From: a virus
Length of the DNA: 64,000 nucleotides
IMG/VR virus record: IMGVR_UViG_3300025853_000046
Location: 26,823-90,822 of that record
Reading direction: 5' to 3' (one strand)
Shown here: piece by piece, positions 26,760-62,706 of the stretch
Numbering within the stretch: position 1 is the first letter of the stretch
Layout: each line of letters starts with the position of its first letter
Notes under the pieces: generated by a model
What the model was told of the DNA's origin: nothing
Databases searched by the model: none
The model's input: only the letters and a program-made list of their open reading frames with translations
Position numbers and translations under genes: made by a program

Positions 26760-28850
26760 TTAAGAATCGTCTTCATAGATATTAATTAGCCCTGAGTCAC
26801 TCGATTTAGGGGCAGGTTTTGATTCATACCCTGTCCATGCGAGCCACATTTCTTTGTCTTGAACAGGTAAAAATCTACAATGTATTTTAGTTTTTACCTC
26901 TTTTCCATTTAGAATATACTCGTGATAACCTTTTCTTTGTGCGCCTAAAATCATTGGCCCACGCTCAAGTAGTGTTTCAGTATCAGGTTTTGGTATTTGC
27001 TTACAGGGGTATTTACCGGACTCTCCTAAAAAGTCGTATATCTGTTCATCCCCACTTACTCGTATTTCCCAAGTCATCTTTTTACCTTGATAAATTATTA
27101 CAAAATGTAAATATCCGTTCTTTGTAATCCAAAGTTCAAACTCCCCCTTACGAACTTCTGCTTTATTTAACACATCATCATCGTGGCTAAACTTTCCAGC
27201 AGAATAAACAATTCCGTATGTTTCACCCGCTTTCATTAAACGGTCTTTCATTTTATTTTGTGAATTATTAAAAAGTCTATTCATCATCTTAGGGTCATGT
27301 TTAGTGGCTCTACCAAAAATATCATCTGCGGATAAATTACCATAATCCATTACTAATTGTTTTACGAATATAAAAAACCTACCATTATCTTTACCATAGG
27401 CATCTTTTAATTCTTCTTTCCAAAAGTCTATATCTATTGAAGCGTTTTTGGACATTAAATTTTTATCTTTAAATCCGTGAAAAATAAATCCATCTAAATC
27501 TAATTCTGTTTGAAGTTTTGCTACACCATGTATTCCATCTGTAATTTCATATGACTTTGTAAGGGCTTCTATTTTGTAATCCCCAAGACTTTTCTTTCCA
27601 CCTGTTGTTAAAAATTCAAGAGTAATTAACTTATCGGGAAGTTTTACTTCAGGTATTTCGTGAAACTTTGAATTGAATAAAGAGAATCCCTTCTTAGGAT
27701 TACCCATAATTTCATCTGCCGTTACACGAATAATAGTTCCCTCTTCTACATCTTGTTTAGTATTTGTTGTCTTACCGACATTCATGTAAAAGTCTCCATC
27801 CATTTCAACAGCCTTAATACTATCTTCTTCAACAGGCCCGATACCCATAGAGTAGCCAAAAGTTCCATTTTTATTTTCAGTTTTAGACAAAACTATAACA
27901 TCTAAGTCTACAAATTTTTTCCACTTAATCCATTTAGGGTTTTTCTTTTTACCAATAACATAAGAAGATTTAGCATCTTTAATAACCACACCCTCGGATG
28001 CAGGATTATCCATTATCTGCATAGCGTATTCTTCAATCTCGGATAAAGAATCAGCATCACGGGTATTACTTTTATTTGGAAATAATACCTTTTCATCTGC
28101 GTTTGCTGAAAAATTTTTCATAAGAATCATAATGCGTTCTTCTAATTTTTCAGACGCTACGGACTTATCTTCAAAATACATAATATCAAATACATGCGCT
28201 TTAATATCTGCTTCTTCTGTTACCTTTTTATTAATATGGGCAAGAGTATCTGCTCGAACTAAAGGTTCTCCGTCTTTATACATTACTGCTTCGCCGTCTA
28301 AAATACAACTTGGAAAAACTCTATTTTCTAAAACCTTAACAACATCAGGCATTTTGTCGGTAATGTCTCTTGCGTTAAATGTGTAAATCTTAACCTTATT
28401 TTCAAACTTATGAATTTGTATTCTTAGACCATCGTATTTTTCTTGAACAATATAATCATTTGTAAGCCCTTTAATTTCTTTCATGTCGTCTATTTCAAAT
28501 ATACGATACATTGGTTTATTCGGTTCTATGAATTTTTCGGGTCTATCTTGTTTTACTATTTCAATAGGAGATTGCCTATTATTAAAATATCCATAAATTT
28601 CACCTGCTTTATTATTTGCTACCGAAAAAGAATCATCAGAAAACAAAACACTGTCATCTATATTAGGAAATTGTTCCTTAATTTTGGGGTCTTTTAAAAG
28701 TTCTCTCAATTGAACTACTAATTTTTCCCAATCCTTTTCATATGCTTTAGGATTTTCCTTAGCACTTAAAAATGTAGCACGAACCATGTTACTTAAAGAA
28801 GAAACATTTTTTACTACACTATCAAATTGAGTAAATATCATTACTCTCAC
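26760..28850 (-). CDS. lig: ATP-dependent DNA ligase with C-terminal extension (696 aa)
   Basis: Motif I 'QEKYDGLRIQIH', III 'ILDGEAV', IIIa 'VFDIM', IV 'EGVVIK', V 'WIKWK' and an OB domain. Confidence 0.92.
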   Translation of the reverse strand: MRVMIFTQFDSVVKNVSSLSNMVRATFLSAKENPKAYEKDWEKLVVQLRELLKDPKIKEQFPNIDDSVLFSDDSFSVANNKAGEIYGYFNNRQSPIEIVKQDRPEKFIEPNKPMYRIFEIDDMKEIKGLTNDYIVQEKYDGLRIQIHKFENKVKIYTFNARDITDKMPDVVKVLENRVFPSCILDGEAVMYKDGEPLVRADTLAHINKKVTEEADIKAHVFDIMYFEDKSVASEKLEERIMILMKNFSANADEKVLFPNKSNTRDADSLSEIEEYAMQIMDNPASEGVVIKDAKSSYVIGKKKNPKWIKWKKFVDLDVIVLSKTENKNGTFGYSMGIGPVEEDSIKAVEMDGDFYMNVGKTTNTKQDVEEGTIIRVTADEIMGNPKKGFSLFNSKFHEIPEVKLPDKLITLEFLTTGGKKSLGDYKIEALTKSYEITDGIHGVAKLQTELDLDGFIFHGFKDKNLMSKNASIDIDFWKEELKDAYGKDNGRFFIFVKQLVMDYGNLSADDIFGRATKHDPKMMNRLFNNSQNKMKDRLMKAGETYGIVYSAGKFSHDDDVLNKAEVRKGEFELWITKNGYLHFVIIYQGKKMTWEIRVSGDEQIYDFLGESGKYPCKQIPKPDTETLLERGPMILGAQRKGYHEYILNGKEVKTKIHCRFLPVQDKEMWLAWTGYESKPAPKSSDSGLINIYEDDS

Positions 28851-53278: not shown

Positions 53279-53933
53279 GATTATTATGATGGGCTTTTTC
53301 TATTTAATGTTTTTTAATTAAAAAAATTCCCAAAGTGAACCATATGGTAAGGAAAGTTAGTGAAGGTCACTCGTCTTCATCGTTAAACACTTTCACACCT
53401 CCTGCGGTTTCATTATGCTAACGCATGAACCATATGGTTCTATGAAATAGATAGTTTTATCTTCAGAATTTTAAAGCATGGGTTGGATTGAGGGTGGGAA
53501 AGATGGTTTGGAGTTCTTAATATAAAAGTTGCACCTTTTATATAGGTGAGGTGGGCAATTTCGGCTATACCTTTATTTGTCATAGCCAAGCCCTACCATA
53601 TGGTAATAATAATTTGTAGAAAGACCTTAGATAAAAAAACAAAAAAAATAACGGGAAAATACTTTAAGACCGACCTTTCACAGCCGCCATCTTTAATCCT
53701 GACAAACAAAAGTTTAACAAAAACGAAGCCAATTAAGAAAATTGAGTATTTTTACTGGATAAACCCGCTATCTCTTTTAAGGGAGTAGGAACGGGCTTTA
53801 CACCCGTTTGTCTTAGTTCTTTTAGGGAATCACTAAGAATATTCTATATATCTTTATATTTCATACACTAAGTATAAGCATATAGGCGTTAAACAATCCT
53901 ACCTGTTTTTTACCGCTTCCACCCTCCACCAAC

Positions 53934-54767
53934 TCACTGTATTTCTTGCCATTTACCATTCCAACTTCGACCGTTGAGAATCCAACGATAGTTTTTTTGA
54001 TAAATATGCACATTGTCGAAACCATTTAGTCTTTCCTTTGTAGTTACGGTTTCCCAACCACCGGATGAAATAAAGAAACCATGACAATCCTTGTAAGCAA
54101 TCAAATTACCAAAAAGAAACAATTCACACTTCCATGAAGAGGGGTAATTCTCTACACATGAATACTTAACTTCAGTATTGCTTTTCTTGAAGTTTCGATT
54201 ATAGGTAAATGCCTGTATTGCTTGTCTTGTAATTTTTTTCATTCTTCACTCGCCTCCTTTGTCTGCCTGTCCATCTCTTGAACAACTTTCAAAGCCATAT
54301 CTACTCTTTTCCAATCTTCCCAAAGAGCATCTGCTAAAGCAGAAAGTTCTTCTAAGTCCATTTTAATTAAATCAGCCACTACAAATTTTTCTGGGTATTT
54401 CATTCTTCTTCCTCCTCTGGCACATAAACGGTTTGTATTATTCCACCCGTTATATTTTGTTTATGAAAACAAGCGGTATCGCAATAATACATCATGTGTT
54501 GATTAGGGTCAAGTTTTGTTTCACACCATTTACAATTAGTATAAGGCTTATCAACATACCCTTTTCCTAAAGGTGCAACTGGGCCAATTCTCATCATGCG
54601 TTCATCTCCTGTAATTGTTGAGAGATTTGTTTTAGTGCAAGAATGAGTTCTTTTTCCAACTCTTCTTGACTATCAGCACTGACACGGAGTTCATCAATAA
54701 TGAACTTCTCGTATCGGTTCTGTTTTACTTTAATTACAAACTTCGGTTCTCGCTTTTTCCAAAACAT
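53934..54767 (-). CDS. Four-gene mini-operon (54594-54767, 54400-54597, 54239-54403, 53934-54242)
   Basis: ATGA-coupled small ORFs, one with CxxC..YC...C; promoter at 54790-54826. Confidence 0.55.
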
Positions 54768-55146
54768 GATTATAATTAATATCTAATAGATATAAGGTAT
54801 TATACAAATTATCCTTACCATATGGTTCAAGATTTCTTCAATCGTTTTTTCAGATAGTATGGGTGGATTGAGGGTGGGCAAAATGCTCTCTTAAAACTCG
54901 TATTTAAGAAACAGCAAAGCGTCTTTAATCTTATGGTTCCCGTTCCTCCTTACCATATGGTATCAAAGTAATTTGTATGATAGACCGCAGGTTAAAAAAG
55001 GTGGATTTTTAAGGAGAATCCATAACTCCGATTTGTTTTGCCCTGCATTGTTTTCTCAACACAGCGAGTTCTTTTCTTTAACCCGTCAATTCCCCGAATG
55101 ATTAAAAATCATTCTTCGTCGTCTTCAAAGAAGTGGAAGAAGTGCT

Positions 55147-55779
55147 TCATTCGGAAGCCTCTTCAACAACTGCTTCTTCAACGGCAACTTCTTCTTTAGG
55201 CGTATAAGGCCGTAGAAGTTTAGAAGCCAAAGAAAACTTTTTAGCATCGTCAGCATCGGCCCAAGTGCCGTTTCTGATGTCGCCTTTAAGTCCAGCAATT
55301 CGAGATGAAATGCGAGCCTTCAAAAAGTTCTCAAGGTTTCCGTATTCTTGTCCGTCACCATTCTTAGCAGAAGAACGAGTCATTTCAAGATGTGTAGCGT
55401 CGTTTGTTTCAAGAACATTCCAAAAAGCGGTATATGCTTCATTCAAAATTACTTGTCCTTCATTCAAAACTGCAACTTGATAAGCAGGTAAAGAGATACC
55501 GCCACCTTGACGCTTAGGCCAATTAGCCATTTCTCTTCCTGAGTTCAAGATATTAGACTTAAAATCAGTTCTTCGACTTGCTCGCTTGTCGCCTTTCTCG
55601 ATGTTTTCGATAATATCGGCCCAATCTTCTTTAAAGAAATCAGCATCAAAATCCTCGCCTTTTGCTTCAGTCATTTGTTGAGTTGCGCTCAACACCGCAT
55701 CCATATCTTGAGAAACAAATGTTCGCACATCTGCAACCCAAGCATTCCAATCATTGTCATCTATATTTTTTTTCGACAT
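55147..55779 (-). CDS. Hypothetical early protein (210 aa)
   Basis: Own palindrome-TATA promoter; visibly more GC-rich than the late genes. Confidence 0.65.
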   Translation of the reverse strand: MSKKNIDDNDWNAWVADVRTFVSQDMDAVLSATQQMTEAKGEDFDADFFKEDWADIIENIEKGDKRASRRTDFKSNILNSGREMANWPKRQGGGISLPAYQVAVLNEGQVILNEAYTAFWNVLETNDATHLEMTRSSAKNGDGQEYGNLENFLKARISSRIAGLKGDIRNGTWADADDAKKFSLASKLLRPYTPKEEVAVEEAVVEEASE

Positions 55780-56628
55780 ATTTCAAAACCCCCTTTGGGT
55801 ATGTTTGTTGTATGCCGTATATAATATAAGGTTTCCAGCAAATCATTCCTTACCATATGGTAATAATAATGTAATGAGTAACAGAACATTCGTAAGTCAA
55901 ATGGTCTGTACTCGTGGAATATATATTGCCCCAACTAAGATAAGGATATTAACTTCGTTAAATTCTATTTTCGCCCACCCTCATGCACACCCAACAGAAC
56001 CATATGGTAAGAAAAAATGAAGTATGGCGTTATTCGTCTTCTTCGTTAAACAATTTTTTCACCTGCCCCGGTAGATTATGCTTACGCCTACCATATGGTA
56101 AGTAAAATTTAGTAAGGTGAGGGTTACTCGTCATCTTCGTTGAACAATTTTACACCCCCTACCGAGGTATTTTGCTATCGCCTACCATATGGTAAGTAAT
56201 AATAATGAGAGAAAGGAGTGAGCAGTATTCAATGAGCAATACTGCTTCGACTTGAAAGAATATATATCTACCCCAGCACACGGGGGAGGTTTCCGCATTC
56301 GCCAAAAATATTTACCCACCCTCGAACCACCCTTATTTTTGAACCATATGGTAAGGAAACATAATACTTTCTATGTTGAGCGAAAGGAATATATTGGATT
56401 GAATATATTTTTTAAGCGGTAGGGCTAATAGCCCAATAGAAAGCATTAGTATTGCGAAACCTGACGAAGAAAAAAGGACATAAAAAGAAAATTCTGTTAA
56501 AAATTCATATGACCCGCCCTCGAACCACCCTTTCTTTTTAACAGAACTTTCTGTTTATTTTGCTACGCAACCATATGGTAAGCGTTAATTTGTTTAGCAC
56601 CTTATACCTTTCAATGATTAAAGTAACT

Positions 56629-57009
56629 ATGCCCACAGAGGCAGGAGATATACATATGCAATATGATAAAATAAAGATGACTGCGAAGGCCCAAAAATGG
56701 CTTGAAAATGCAACGGATGAAGAGGACATTGGGGATGTTACCCAATTACTCAGTCGAATTGAGACAATGGATGAAAGTCCTCGTCTTCAACGCAGACTTG
56801 AGACTTTGAACACCTATATCAAGGGAACATCTATGAGAGTTACCTTGAATGAGGCTCAAATGACTCAAAAGGCTACTATCGTTAAATCATTGGATGAGAT
56901 TTTTACTCTATACCCTGATTTGAGCATCCCTCGCACACGCAACCTTGAAACACTTGGCGAAAAAGTCGAAGAGGCTATTAAGGCCCAAATCAAGGCGGAA
57001 TCAAAGTGA
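56629..57009 (+). CDS. Hypothetical early protein (starts MPTEAG)
   Basis: Palindrome-TATA promoter with leaderless spacing. Confidence 0.6.
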   Translation: MPTEAGDIHMQYDKIKMTAKAQKWLENATDEEDIGDVTQLLSRIETMDESPRLQRRLETLNTYIKGTSMRVTLNEAQMTQKATIVKSLDEIFTLYPDLSIPRTRNLETLGEKVEEAIKAQIKAESK

Positions 57010-57529
57010 TTTTTTCCGAAGATGACGAATAAGGCTCAAAATTGAGTCCTATGCCCTCCACTTTCTCTATACGGGAAAGTATGCCGTTCTTCACCCTTCT
57101 TCGGAGGGGTGGAGAACCCCCTTTTTTTGAGGTTGCTACTAAACAAATTAACGATACCGCAACCATATGGAATGGGAGGTTTGAGGGTGGGTCAGATTCC
57201 GCAGATAATAAAACTCTGGGATAAGGAATTATTCTATACTCTTTATTACACCGTAGATAAAACCATATGGTAAGTAAAAAGATAATAATTACTAAATAAT
57301 ACAATTAGGTGTAGTGGGCTACACCGAGTGTAATTTTTACACCTACTGCTTCAAAGCACACCGGATTTCATACCCCCTTTATAAGCGATACCGCCATCCT
57401 CAATACTGCAATTGAATCATATGCAAGCACTTTACCAATGTTTCTTAACAATCACAAGAAACTCCAACCCCAAAAAACACTTTGAATTAAATGTAATAAT
57501 ATGATTTATTTAATTTATACTTTCTATTT

Positions 57530-58434: not shown

Positions 58435-60577
58435 AAAATATAAAATGTAAGAAAAACTGCGACGATGGATGGCGAGTAGCGTTCATAAATTATGAAAGAG
58501 CACCGAATGTATGGACATTTAATTGTCGAGGTTGCGGTGAAAGTTTTAAGATAACATTAGGTGAACGAAAATGATAATAAAAAATTATGAAATAACAAGT
58601 GGGGTAGCCCCAACACAGATTGAAGGCAAACTATTGGGTGGAAAGGACTTTTACATTCGATACCGCAATTGCATATTCTATGCAGAAGTGGCCGGTGAAG
58701 AGATATGCCGAATAGAACTTTGGGATAGAATGGGAGACTACCATAGAGAAGTATTCATGGAAACCAGTGAGGCTTTTCAATTAGCAGGAATGAAGACGGC
58801 TATCAAATGCCGAAGACCTATGAAACATAGGCCAGAATTTGAAACAAAAATACATTGTAAAACATGCGAAGGTGAAGAAGAATGAGAAGAGAAATAACAT
58901 GCAAATGCGGCGTAGACACTTGGTATGAAGATAGTAGTAATGTGAACTATGTAGACGCTTGGAGAGCATTACAGTCAAAATGTAAGTGTGGTGGCGAAGA
59001 ATGAAGGACTATTTGAAAGACTTTTTGGAAAATAAAATATCAATGATAGACGCTATGAAGATTGCACTAATGCTTGATGTTGATATGGATGAAGCATATG
59101 ATATTGCTATAAAGGCTTTGATTAAGACGGCACTTGATACATCAAACGATTTGACAGTGGAAGAGATTGAAAGAACACATGAAATGTGCGAGAAAGTAGA
59201 TATTACTTGGTGGGGAAACTATCAAAAGTTTATGAAAAGTGCTGAACTTGGTGGGGAAACAAATGAGAGATAGAAAGACAGTAACCATAAACGATGATAC
59301 AATTACAGAAAGAATGATGTGGGATTGGCTTGTCACAGCATTTGAAGGTGGTAGTAATTATTGGATTGGAAAGGTAAAGGTCAGTAAGGAAACTATGTCA
59401 CTACATTCTTTATTTGCTACTGAGTTCGATAAGACTATAAGTGGTTGGAGATGGTTTCATCAAGTGCCATTTGTCTTAGAAACTGATAATTTCAAAGGAC
59501 ATGAACTTGAGATAGACACACCTTCTGGGGTTAAATTCCTTGCGGTGCAAAATCTTTTCGATGCGATTGAAATAATGGCTATAAATTGTCATGGAGATTA
59601 TCAACTTTTAGTTACAGAAAATTACGATGCTTTGACAGCAGATATTTTCCTACAATATGCACTATTTCAGGATGTGATTTACGGATGATTTTTACAATAA
59701 TTTCAGTGATGTTTTATGCAATTTTTGTAGGCATTTTAACAGAATTATTTTATGAGAAACAGAAGTTGTCTGACAAATCCGTAGAAGGTGAGGAAGAATG
59801 ATTGACACAGACAAATATAAAAGACATACCAAAGGTGATAATGAAGTCGGTTGGAGAATAGTTGGGGATAACTTTGTCATGAATGATAAGTCTCCTACGA
59901 GATTCATCGCTTATGTTCAAGTGAACAATGATGGAGAACATACTATCGTTGGGTTTTCCGATGCAGATGCACAACTCATAGCAGACGCACCACTATTATT
60001 AGAAGAAATCAAGCGGTTGCGTAAAGAGATTGAAGAGGTGAGGAAGAATGAACTGCTCAGTTTGCGATAGACCAGCCCAAGTAAAATTAAATGAGGGTAG
60101 GATGAACATACTCGAAGTATTAACTTTAAAGGGAAATATAGTCCATGACTGGACAGGTGGCGGTAGTCTTACCACGCACTTCTGTAAAGAATGCTTTCAA
60201 GGTTTGGCAAAGCAGATTTACCGTGAAGGTTACTATGCCGACTACACACTAAGGAGAGATGAAGAATGAATGATATGTCAGAAAAGATGAAAAAATTAAC
60301 ACATGAAGAAAGAACAGAAAGAATGAACATGTCCTTACATTGGATATGTTCTGTAATTGAAGAAGGTAAAATGGACACAAAGGTTGTTGTTATCCAAGAA
60401 CTTCTTGATGTTTTATTTGATTTATTACACCATATGGAGGATTGAAGAATGAATGGAATTCATACAAACTGCGTAATTTGCGGAGGGTCACTTTTGCACC
60501 CTGACGAAATCAAACTTGGCTACCATGAAGAATGTGCTAAATTACAGAACAAAAAAGTTCACTCAATGAGGGGATGA
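58422..60577 (+). CDS. Array of small coupled early ORFs (58422-58574, 58571-58885, 58882-59004, 59001-59273, 59263-59688, 59685-59801, 59798-60070, 60048-60269, 60266-60445, 60449-60577)
   Basis: ATGA overlaps; several CxxC Zn-ribbons and one membrane peptide; some translated by hand. Confidence 0.55.
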
Positions 60578-62610: not shown

Positions 62611-62692
62611 GGCGGGGTTCCCGAGCGGTCAAAGGGGCCGGGCTTAAGTTCCGGTGCGTATTGCTTCGTGGGTTCAAATCCCACCCCCGCCA
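62611..62692 (+). tRNA. tRNA-Leu(TAA), no encoded CCA
   Basis: Acceptor GGCGGGG/CCCCGCC; anticodon stem CCGGG/TCCGG with loop CTTAAGT; long variable arm; T-arm GTGGG-TTCAAAT-CCCAC. Confidence 0.93.
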
Positions 62693-62706
62693 CTTATTAT
62701 TTATAG

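Follow-up and report, generated by a model that had tools for sequence, protein, structure and literature searches.

Can reading frames of only seven codons be genuine genes in a virus? This question is raised by a 64,000-nucleotide stretch of viral DNA (the window; positions 26,823 to 90,822 of IMG/VR record IMGVR_UViG_3300025853_000046), in which a family of very short acidic open reading frames (micro-ORFs) recurs between 53,367 and 57,032, each led by a Shine-Dalgarno sequence (SD). All positions below are those of the window. By its gene content, the genome, a single record of 90,822 bp, is that of a magrovirus-like virus of marine archaea. We compared the micro-ORFs with their counterparts in related viruses and found that they behave as translated minigenes would; whether their product serves as a free peptide is a more tentative matter, which we weigh against the alternatives.

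Acidic micro-ORFs in the window

Five micro-ORFs had been reported in an earlier note made from the letters alone, and all five were located at the positions and on the strands given there. The three stand-alone copies lie on the minus strand and encode MFNDEDE (53367-53390), MFNEEDE (56030-56053) and MFNEDDE (56124-56147, with a TTG start and a TAA stop). Their SDs, GGAGGTG (53396-53402), AGGTGA (56059-56064) and GGGGGTG (56153-56159), are present as described and end 4-6 nt 5' of the start. Each copy sits in a cassette that runs from palindrome to palindrome on the same strand. Specifically, MFNEDDE is held by cassette A (56090-56193, 104 nt), MFNEEDE by cassette B (55999-56099, 101 nt) and MFNDEDE by cassette C (53339-53438, 100 nt), the last of which is set 2.6 kb apart from the other two, on the upstream side of the long block of leftward genes. 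The other two micro-ORFs are coupled to gene ends, as the note had also stated. On the plus strand, the tail mini-ORF MIFSEDDE (57006-57032), with AAGGCGG 7 nt upstream, overlaps by GTGA the stop of the ORF at 56560/56656-57009. On the minus strand, the tail mini-ORF MKHFFHFFEDDEE (55109-55150) overlaps by ATGA, in the -1 frame, the stop of the gene at 55147-55779.

The differences among the stand-alone copies had been described as confined to third codon positions, with starts and stops that vary and yet remain starts and stops. Indeed, the six variable sites of the 24-nt copies are the first position of the start codon, four third codon positions and the second position of the stop codon. 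The degenerate 18-mer TTYAAYGANGANGAYGAR has 3 exact matches, and at no more than 2 mismatches it has 9, compared with 0.77 expected from shuffled sequences (0 of 100 shuffles reached 9); both coupled copies are among these nine. In a close relative (L007/L038, 97% protein identity), the mini-ORF MFNEDDE is identical, and the three ORFs carry 0 changes in 72 nt, compared with 9 in 234 nt of the remaining cassette sequence.

Conservation of the stand-alone minigenes

Viral contigs were scanned for two palindromes 70-100 nt apart, which returned 37 loci, about 20 of them with an anatomy like that of the window. With a metagenome scan added, the collection reached 64 distinct cassettes, or 57 representatives at <90% identity, and one to three cassettes were found per genome. 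Throughout the 57 representatives the SD is kept, only ATG, GTG or TTG serves as start and only TGA or TAA as stop, and shifts in length are always whole codons. The earlier note had proposed codon-position conservation in related genomes as the check on coding, and had named frameshifts, substitutions blind to codon position and loss of the SD or start as signs of a DNA-binding site; none of these signs appeared in the representatives, and the third position proved to be the variable one. Across the last four sense codons of the 25 distinct ORFs from viral contigs, the entropy was 0.36 bits at codon position 1 and 0.42 bits at position 2, but 1.37 bits at position 3.

These 25 ORFs are 6, 7, 8, 10 or 11 codons long, start with ATG (16), GTG (7) or TTG (2), end with TGA (20) or TAA (5), and employ all four D/E codons in their acidic runs. 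Residue 2 is F in 18, Y in 3 and I in 2. A hydrophobic or aromatic residue nearly always stands before the acidic run, in which C, H or S substitutes for D or E in several lineages. The stand-alone peptides of the relatives include MFFDDDE, MFDDDE, MFEDDE, MYCDDE, MFDCDE, MFDDDDE, MFFDDDDE and MFYDDDE, as well as MLYEDED, MKYTSDEDDE, MICEDDECDCE and MINPDDDIDHDGE.

The tie between cassette and ORF also held when the cassette was defined without regard to the ORF. With the loop motif of the upstream hairpin H1 (see below) plus the G-block as the definition, 48 of 48 cassettes carried an intact acidic mini-ORF. A scan for the palindrome followed by N12-40 and GCAGGAGG gave an intact acidic ORF in 15 of 17 matches at multi-palindrome loci, compared with 0 of about 55 chance matches. 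The longest uninterrupted match to the anti-SD complement reached at least 6 nt in 37 of the 57 cassettes versus 11 of 57 long genes of this genome, and the distance from SD to start was 4-10 nt in cassettes versus 3-9 nt in the genes. Since the genes of this genome carry AGGAGG or AGGTGAT motifs 3-9 nt 5' of the start, an SD-led minigene fits the initiation mode of the host. Beyond the related viruses, a scan of genome contigs for palindrome pairs returned apparent chance matches, with an ORF in 1 of 41 pairs, and gave no host assignment; a phage collection held no DNA match to the region.

Based on the SD, the behaviour of starts and stops, the whole-codon insertions and deletions, the third-position variation and the frame independence described below for the gene ends, the micro-ORFs are very probably translated minigenes. 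The earlier proposal of translated peptides of 7-13 amino acids thus gains support from comparative evidence, namely the coding signature in the 57 cassettes.

Hairpins of the cassette

The cassette follows one order across the family: the palindrome ACCATATGGT, a covarying hairpin (H1), a strong SD, the start, F or Y, an acidic run of three to five D/E (sometimes with C), TGA or TAA, the second arm of another hairpin (H2), and the palindrome again. H1 lies 5' of the SD and is built from the GGT of the upstream palindrome and a variable arm, with the loop form GCGWWAGCATAWT; its arm pairs include GGTTCAT/ATGAACC, GGTAG/CTACC, GGTGTCCA/TGGACACC and others. The 5' arm of H2 runs from the 3' part of the SD through spacer and start codon to codon 2, and pairs with the sequence just 5' of the downstream palindrome. 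H2 therefore joins the SD-start region to the sequence after the stop and leaves the body of the ORF in the loop. Compensatory changes in H2 extend into codon 2 (ATGTAT/ATACAT, ATGATT/AATCAT, ATGTTC/GAACAT). In the window, cassette A reads palindrome, H1, SD GGGGGTG, TTG, MFNEDDE, TAA, the 3' arm AATTTTAC and palindrome, and this arm pairs with GTAAAATT 5' of the start. In cassette B, H1 pairs GGTAG (56088-56092) with CTACC (56070-56074) and H2 pairs GAAAAAAT (56053-56060) with ATTTTTTC (56011-56018), and in cassette C, H1 pairs GGTTCAT with ATGAAACC.

Across the 57 cassettes, each arm pairs better with its own partner than with those of other cassettes, at -9.5 versus -6.1 kcal/mol for H1 and -11.1 versus -8.8 kcal/mol for H2 (0 of 20,000 permutations in each case). 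Of the 57 cassettes, 49 have the more stable H1 on the strand that encodes the ORF (p = 3e-8), a preference that suggests a sense RNA with the SD in it. The whole cassette folds with a z value of about -3, and both palindromes are able to close the unit.

Covariation of both hairpins, the strand preference of H1, a fold closed by palindrome-palindrome pairing and the association of palindromes with promoters elsewhere in the region would all suit a non-coding cassette as well, that is, a structured RNA or a protein-binding DNA module in which the GAN-repeat loop is the binding motif and the ORF is incidental. We regard this as very unlikely. It leaves unexplained the restriction of starts to ATG/GTG/TTG and of stops to TGA/TAA, the whole-codon shifts in length, the interchange of all four D/E codons and the gene-like SD spacing. 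Moreover, the same motif stands at two gene ends, in any frame, where the cassette hairpins are missing, and a search of Rfam gave nothing beyond a sub-threshold mir-544 match.

Two further candidates were rejected. A C/D-box small RNA was considered for the UGAUGA...UGA pattern of the D-rich copies; the copies of the window (GAAGAAGACGAA) have no such box, and D and E replace each other freely. A CRISPR (clustered regularly interspaced short palindromic repeats) array calls for unique spacers between identical repeats, whereas here the "spacers" are homologous to each other and bear the ORF.

Mini-ORFs at the ends of two gene families

The gene at 55147-55779 (minus strand) encodes a 210-aa protein with an acidic, disordered C-terminus. 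By BLAST and hidden Markov model searches, we collected 49 distinct homologues in the fetched loci, down to 23% identity, and in 38 of these 49 an SD-led acidic mini-ORF lies at or overlaps the stop. Relative to the main gene, the mini-ORF is in frame +1 in 19, -1 in 15 and 0 in 4. The tails include MSIFFDDDE, MLNRFFDDDDD, MRYLFDDDDD, MKFFEDDEE, MIREEED, MILLEEED and MRGFEEED. The same MRYLFDDDDD occurs in different frames in L162 and in L190/L158, owing to a 1-nt change in the spacer. The occurrence of the tail mini-ORFs in any of the three frames argues for independent initiation and against a fixed recoding mechanism.

The 210-aa family is conserved across these viruses, with invariant W, G and R residues, NWP motifs and always a disordered acidic C-terminus. 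The AlphaFold2 model of the protein is all-helical, at a pLDDT (predicted local distance difference test) of 79. Pfam gave no match, PHROG gave a marginal one to a family of unknown function, Foldseek searches against PDB and BFVD and a wide VIA-align search returned generic helical bundles only (Z at most 6.6), and ESM Atlas returned no match at all.

The second family is that of the 117-aa protein encoded on the plus strand at 56656-57009 (the ORF is open from 56560), which has no Pfam or PHROG family. Its homologues occur in L030, L034, L024, L032 and L004, and the tails of the family comprise MIFSEDDE, MNHFDDDE, MIRRDDDE, MKSVIGFTDDDE and MLYRSDDDDDE. In L034, CTG replaces GTG, the sole exception among the tail starts inspected. 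In a few relatives the acidic motif is fused in frame: a 158-aa protein of L015 ends in ...MFSFDDE with the internal SD and ATG retained, and homologues in L021 end in ...YLEEEE and ...GVDEEE. Homologues in L009, L018, L025 and L027 have no tail mini-ORF, and their contigs have no stand-alone cassettes either. The earlier idea that the peptides mimic an acidic protein tail finds some support here, as the motif stands at the stop of two protein families, detached or, in these few relatives, fused in frame.

After the 55109 mini-ORF comes a terminator-like GAATGATT-TTT-AATCATTC with a short hairpin and a T5 run (55090-55115), and after the 57006-57032 mini-ORF a GC-rich hairpin with T7 (57104-57128). 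With such signals behind them, both tail mini-ORFs probably lie at the extreme 3' ends of transcripts.

An SD-like motif upstream, a stop at the junction and a hairpin downstream are also the setting of prfB and dnaX, and the coupled copies might accordingly be C-terminal extensions of the upstream protein, reached through a programmed frameshift at its stop. A_AAG stands before the stop (57003-57008), the acidic run of one subgroup begins exactly at +1 of the TGA, and a few homologues have their tail in frame. We nevertheless consider frameshifting highly improbable. Frames +1, -1 and 0 all occur among close homologues, and a 1-nt insertion or deletion in the spacer alters the frame while the mini-ORF is left untouched (L162 versus L190). 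In addition, the tail mini-ORFs inspected have their own start at SD distance (except for the CTG in L034), no slippery site is shared and the frame relation is not fixed. A translational bypass from GAA to GAA at 55147 was rejected too, because L030 has no matching landing codon.

Small operonic genes at 54400-54423, 58571-58885 and 59586-59801 end in (G)EEE(E) with a TGA/ATG overlap. These lookalikes were not counted as minigenes; their acidic ends result from the SD of the next gene (GAGGAGG) being read in frame.

A possible free peptide acting in trans

The minigene family is conserved in magrovirus-like viruses, with its SD 4-10 nt before an ATG, GTG or TTG. In the encoded peptide, M is followed by hydrophobic or aromatic sequence and then by three to five Asp/Glu, at times with Cys, His or Ser among them, and the stop comes at once after the acidic run. 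The family occurs in three settings, namely the palindrome-bounded cassettes of about 100 nt, the stop of the helical family of about 210 aa and the stop of the family of about 120 aa. We hypothesize that the selected product is the free peptide acting in trans, a detached "tail-tip" ligand that would dock on a host or viral protein or serve as its decoy, supplied in quantity by the several copies of the control region. Several copies with strong SDs do suggest a need for quantity. A candidate target, on which the peptide might dock or for which it might compete, would be a hydrophobic pocket of replisome or clamp type with a basic rim; alternatively, the peptide may bind metal.

Three features favour a peptide in trans: the aromatic or hydrophobic residue is conserved even though covariation in H2 would allow it to change, the residues that take the place of D/E are of the ligand type (C, H, S) and not random ones, and the motif is tied to two protein families and sometimes fused as a true C-terminal tip. 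From the conservation pattern and the anatomy we infer translation, action in trans and timing, and a free peptide acting in trans seems to us a little short of an even proposition. The fuller picture, in which multi-copy, hairpin-gated minigenes yield free hydrophobic-acidic trans effectors of 6-13 residues, a detached tail tip turned gene family, is more tentative still.

Several points weigh against this interpretation. On general grounds, a peptide of 6-8 amino acids is a weak ligand, and the 210-aa protein next to the minigenes, whose fold was not recognised in the structure searches, offers no clue to a target. Only H1, and not H2, supports a sense RNA in the strand tests: H2 showed no sense-strand bias in the 57 cassettes, the antisense being slightly more stable. 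Copies in the same genome share nucleotides (L252 has GAAGATGAAGAT in all three cassettes), so that concerted evolution inflates the apparent conservation. A 3-nt periodicity could in principle come from a GAN-repeat RNA motif. Finally, an acidic run right after the start destabilises ribosomes (PMC9718836), and a role in cis therefore accounts for the acidity equally well.

Such a role would make the minigenes cis-acting short ORFs whose early acidic run pauses or destabilises the ribosome (the intrinsic ribosome destabilisation known for mgtL and mgtQ), an event that, in place of the peptide, sets the H2 fold, the stability of the transcript or termination at the T-runs. The first 8 codons hold four to five D/E, a context that aborts translation in bacteria and eukaryotes (PMC9718836, PMC12673854), and mgtQ employs abortion at an acidic run for regulation (PMC8092293). 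By taking up the start codon and the 3' end of the SD, the covarying H2 would couple ribosome occupancy to the RNA fold; T-runs or hairpins follow immediately after many stops, and the SDs are very strong. However, many copies have no downstream gene on which they could act, being placed at gene 3' ends or facing the next gene convergently. Destabilisation needs no conserved aromatic or hydrophobic residue, in several lineages Cys, His or Ser interrupts the acidic run and leaves it 2-3 residues long, and the stop codon is strictly retained. We also know of no demonstration of ribosome destabilisation by acidic runs in archaea, and on balance we think the cis role, the main rival of the free peptide, the less likely of the two. 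An amino-acid attenuation leader was rejected, as copies lie at gene 3' ends or convergent and no biosynthetic operon is present.

The free peptide might also be a substrate. The precursor gene of microcin C, mccA, has 7 codons, and the minigenes equal it in size; a ThiF-family gene was found in 5 of 5 cassette-bearing relatives tested. The minigenes could thus encode precursors of a microcin-C-like peptide or a ribosomally synthesised and post-translationally modified peptide, processed by a ThiF/E1-like enzyme of the virus. However, 0 of 38 different peptides end in Asn, the C-terminal residue on which the adenylating enzyme of microcin C depends (they end in E, D, G, A or C), the ThiF genes of the relatives are not adjacent to the cassettes, and a complete relative of L021 carries ThiF with no cassette in the 10.6 kb analysed. 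The link of ThiF to the minigenes is weak, and we judge a modified-peptide precursor to be most improbable.

Control region and genomic context

The minigenes lie in a control region (53339-57271, features on both strands) that holds 12 exact copies of the palindrome ACCATATGGT and seven G-boxes. The 12 copies are all those found in the 90.8-kb genome, and the 9-mer core has 26 strand-matches compared with 0.37 expected. Within the stretch from 53.3 to 57.3 kb, the GC skew and the direction of the genes also change over. The palindrome is multi-copy, with 3-13 copies per locus, in about 30 related viral contigs, lineages free of minigenes included. Three ordinary genes of the window have a TATA-like CCTTATA(T) box about 20 nt downstream of a palindrome. 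These observations fit a role of the palindrome as the upstream site of a regulator, independent of the minigenes. In L013 (4314-4461), four palindromes follow one another tightly in tandem, one every 18 bp (ACCATATGGTTTATTGTC), with degenerate copies on the flanks, an arrangement that looks like an iteron or origin-like cluster.

The G-box, GGGTGG-N3-5-GAGGGTGGG, a second repeated motif that is restricted to this region, matches in full at 53480-53498, 54861-54878 and 57174-57191 on the plus strand and at 55974-55992 and 56315-56332 on the minus strand, and its core GAGGG[TC]GG alone occurs at about 56514-56521 and about 53919-53926, both on the minus strand. As a TATA-like ATATATATT lies about 40-50 nt downstream of several G-boxes, they may form a second class of promoter beside the palindrome-associated one. 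By eye, a G-box and a TATA-like element also lie upstream of cassettes A and B, which would place both cassettes within a longer sense RNA. A plus-strand G-box and TATA point into 53600-53930, about 330 nt between the region upstream of cassette C and the small-gene operon, with no convincing ORF on the gene strand; this interval may give a non-coding RNA or an antisense transcript.

The placement of the genome rests on its gene set. The major capsid protein is closest to those of the haloarchaeal tailed viruses HCTV-1 and HVTV-1, an ATP-dependent ligase gene (26760-28850) lies inside the structural block, and PolB, an RFC-like ATPase and a thermosome-type chaperonin are encoded. A halovirus-like capsid protein, an archaeal-type replisome (PolB, RFC), a chaperonin and a ligase in the structural block are thus all present, as in the published gene set of the magroviruses of Marine Group II archaea (PMC5434244). 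The rightward arm also carries a tRNA-Leu(TAA) gene (62611-62693, plus strand), and tRNA-Leu has been reported in magroviruses (PMC5434244).

Relation to known systems and significance

We class the family among translated minigenes, and one of the closest known systems is mccA. Both have about 7 codons, their own SD, direct translation (probable for the minigenes), a hairpin after the gene and a conserved peptide sequence. Unlike the magrovirus peptides, which end in D/E and have no adjacent enzyme, MccA ends in Asn and its gene adjoins that of the adenylating MccB; the minigenes also occur in several copies per genome and in a virus of an archaeal host. The lambda bar ORFs have 2 codons and no conserved peptide, and were found via their toxicity in pth mutants. 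They too are phage-encoded, SD-led and ultra-short, and their effect stems from translation, whereas the peptide motif of the minigenes is conserved over 6-13 codons.

Acidic tips of the SSB type (DDDIPF of E. coli SSB, and T7 gp2.5) are docking peptides. The minigene peptides share with them a short motif, in part acidic and in part hydrophobic, placed at the very C-terminus behind an acidic, disordered linker. The order is reversed, however, with the hydrophobic part before the acidic one, the tip is usually a separate translation product, and the 210-aa partner is predicted to be all-helical and not an OB (oligonucleotide/oligosaccharide-binding) fold.

The mgtL/mgtQ ORFs of Salmonella (PMC8092293) are likewise short, with acidic residues near the start and overlapping RNA stem-loops. 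The D/E-rich chain of this type in the first ~10 codons is found here as three to five D/E at residues 3-8. As to overlapping RNA structures, the covarying H2 takes in the start codon; the analysis revealed no second fold that would alternate with it, and for many copies there is no gene downstream to control. In contrast to the single leader or intergenic ORFs of Salmonella, which control a downstream Mg2+ transporter gene, the minigenes are many, stand alone or at gene 3' ends, and conserve a hydrophobic residue and the stop. The PeSL cassettes of T4-type phages (PMC2839356) are likewise short regulatory units that recur within a plastic control region, with bounding repeats that could mediate shuffling and with copy number and placement that vary among relatives; they differ in that they consist of a sigma-70 promoter and a terminator and encode no conserved peptide. 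Full-text literature searches for the palindrome and peptide strings returned unrelated papers only, and the magrovirus literature searched made no mention of palindromes or repeats, promoters or small ORFs.

The comparative data alone show that genes of 6-8 codons are kept across an abundant, never-cultured group of ocean viruses. Since gene callers discard such short ORFs, a whole class of viral products goes unseen. If the peptides do act freely in trans, the minigenes would rank with the shortest conserved protein-coding genes on record, and would be the first such family from a virus of archaea. As viral effectors they would be of a new kind, and they would offer a way into the interplay of virus and host in Marine Group II archaea, for which, to our knowledge, no genetics exists. 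If they act in cis, this would be the first case known to us of acidic-run ribosome destabilisation used for regulation in archaea. Under either reading, the cassette is compact and portable.

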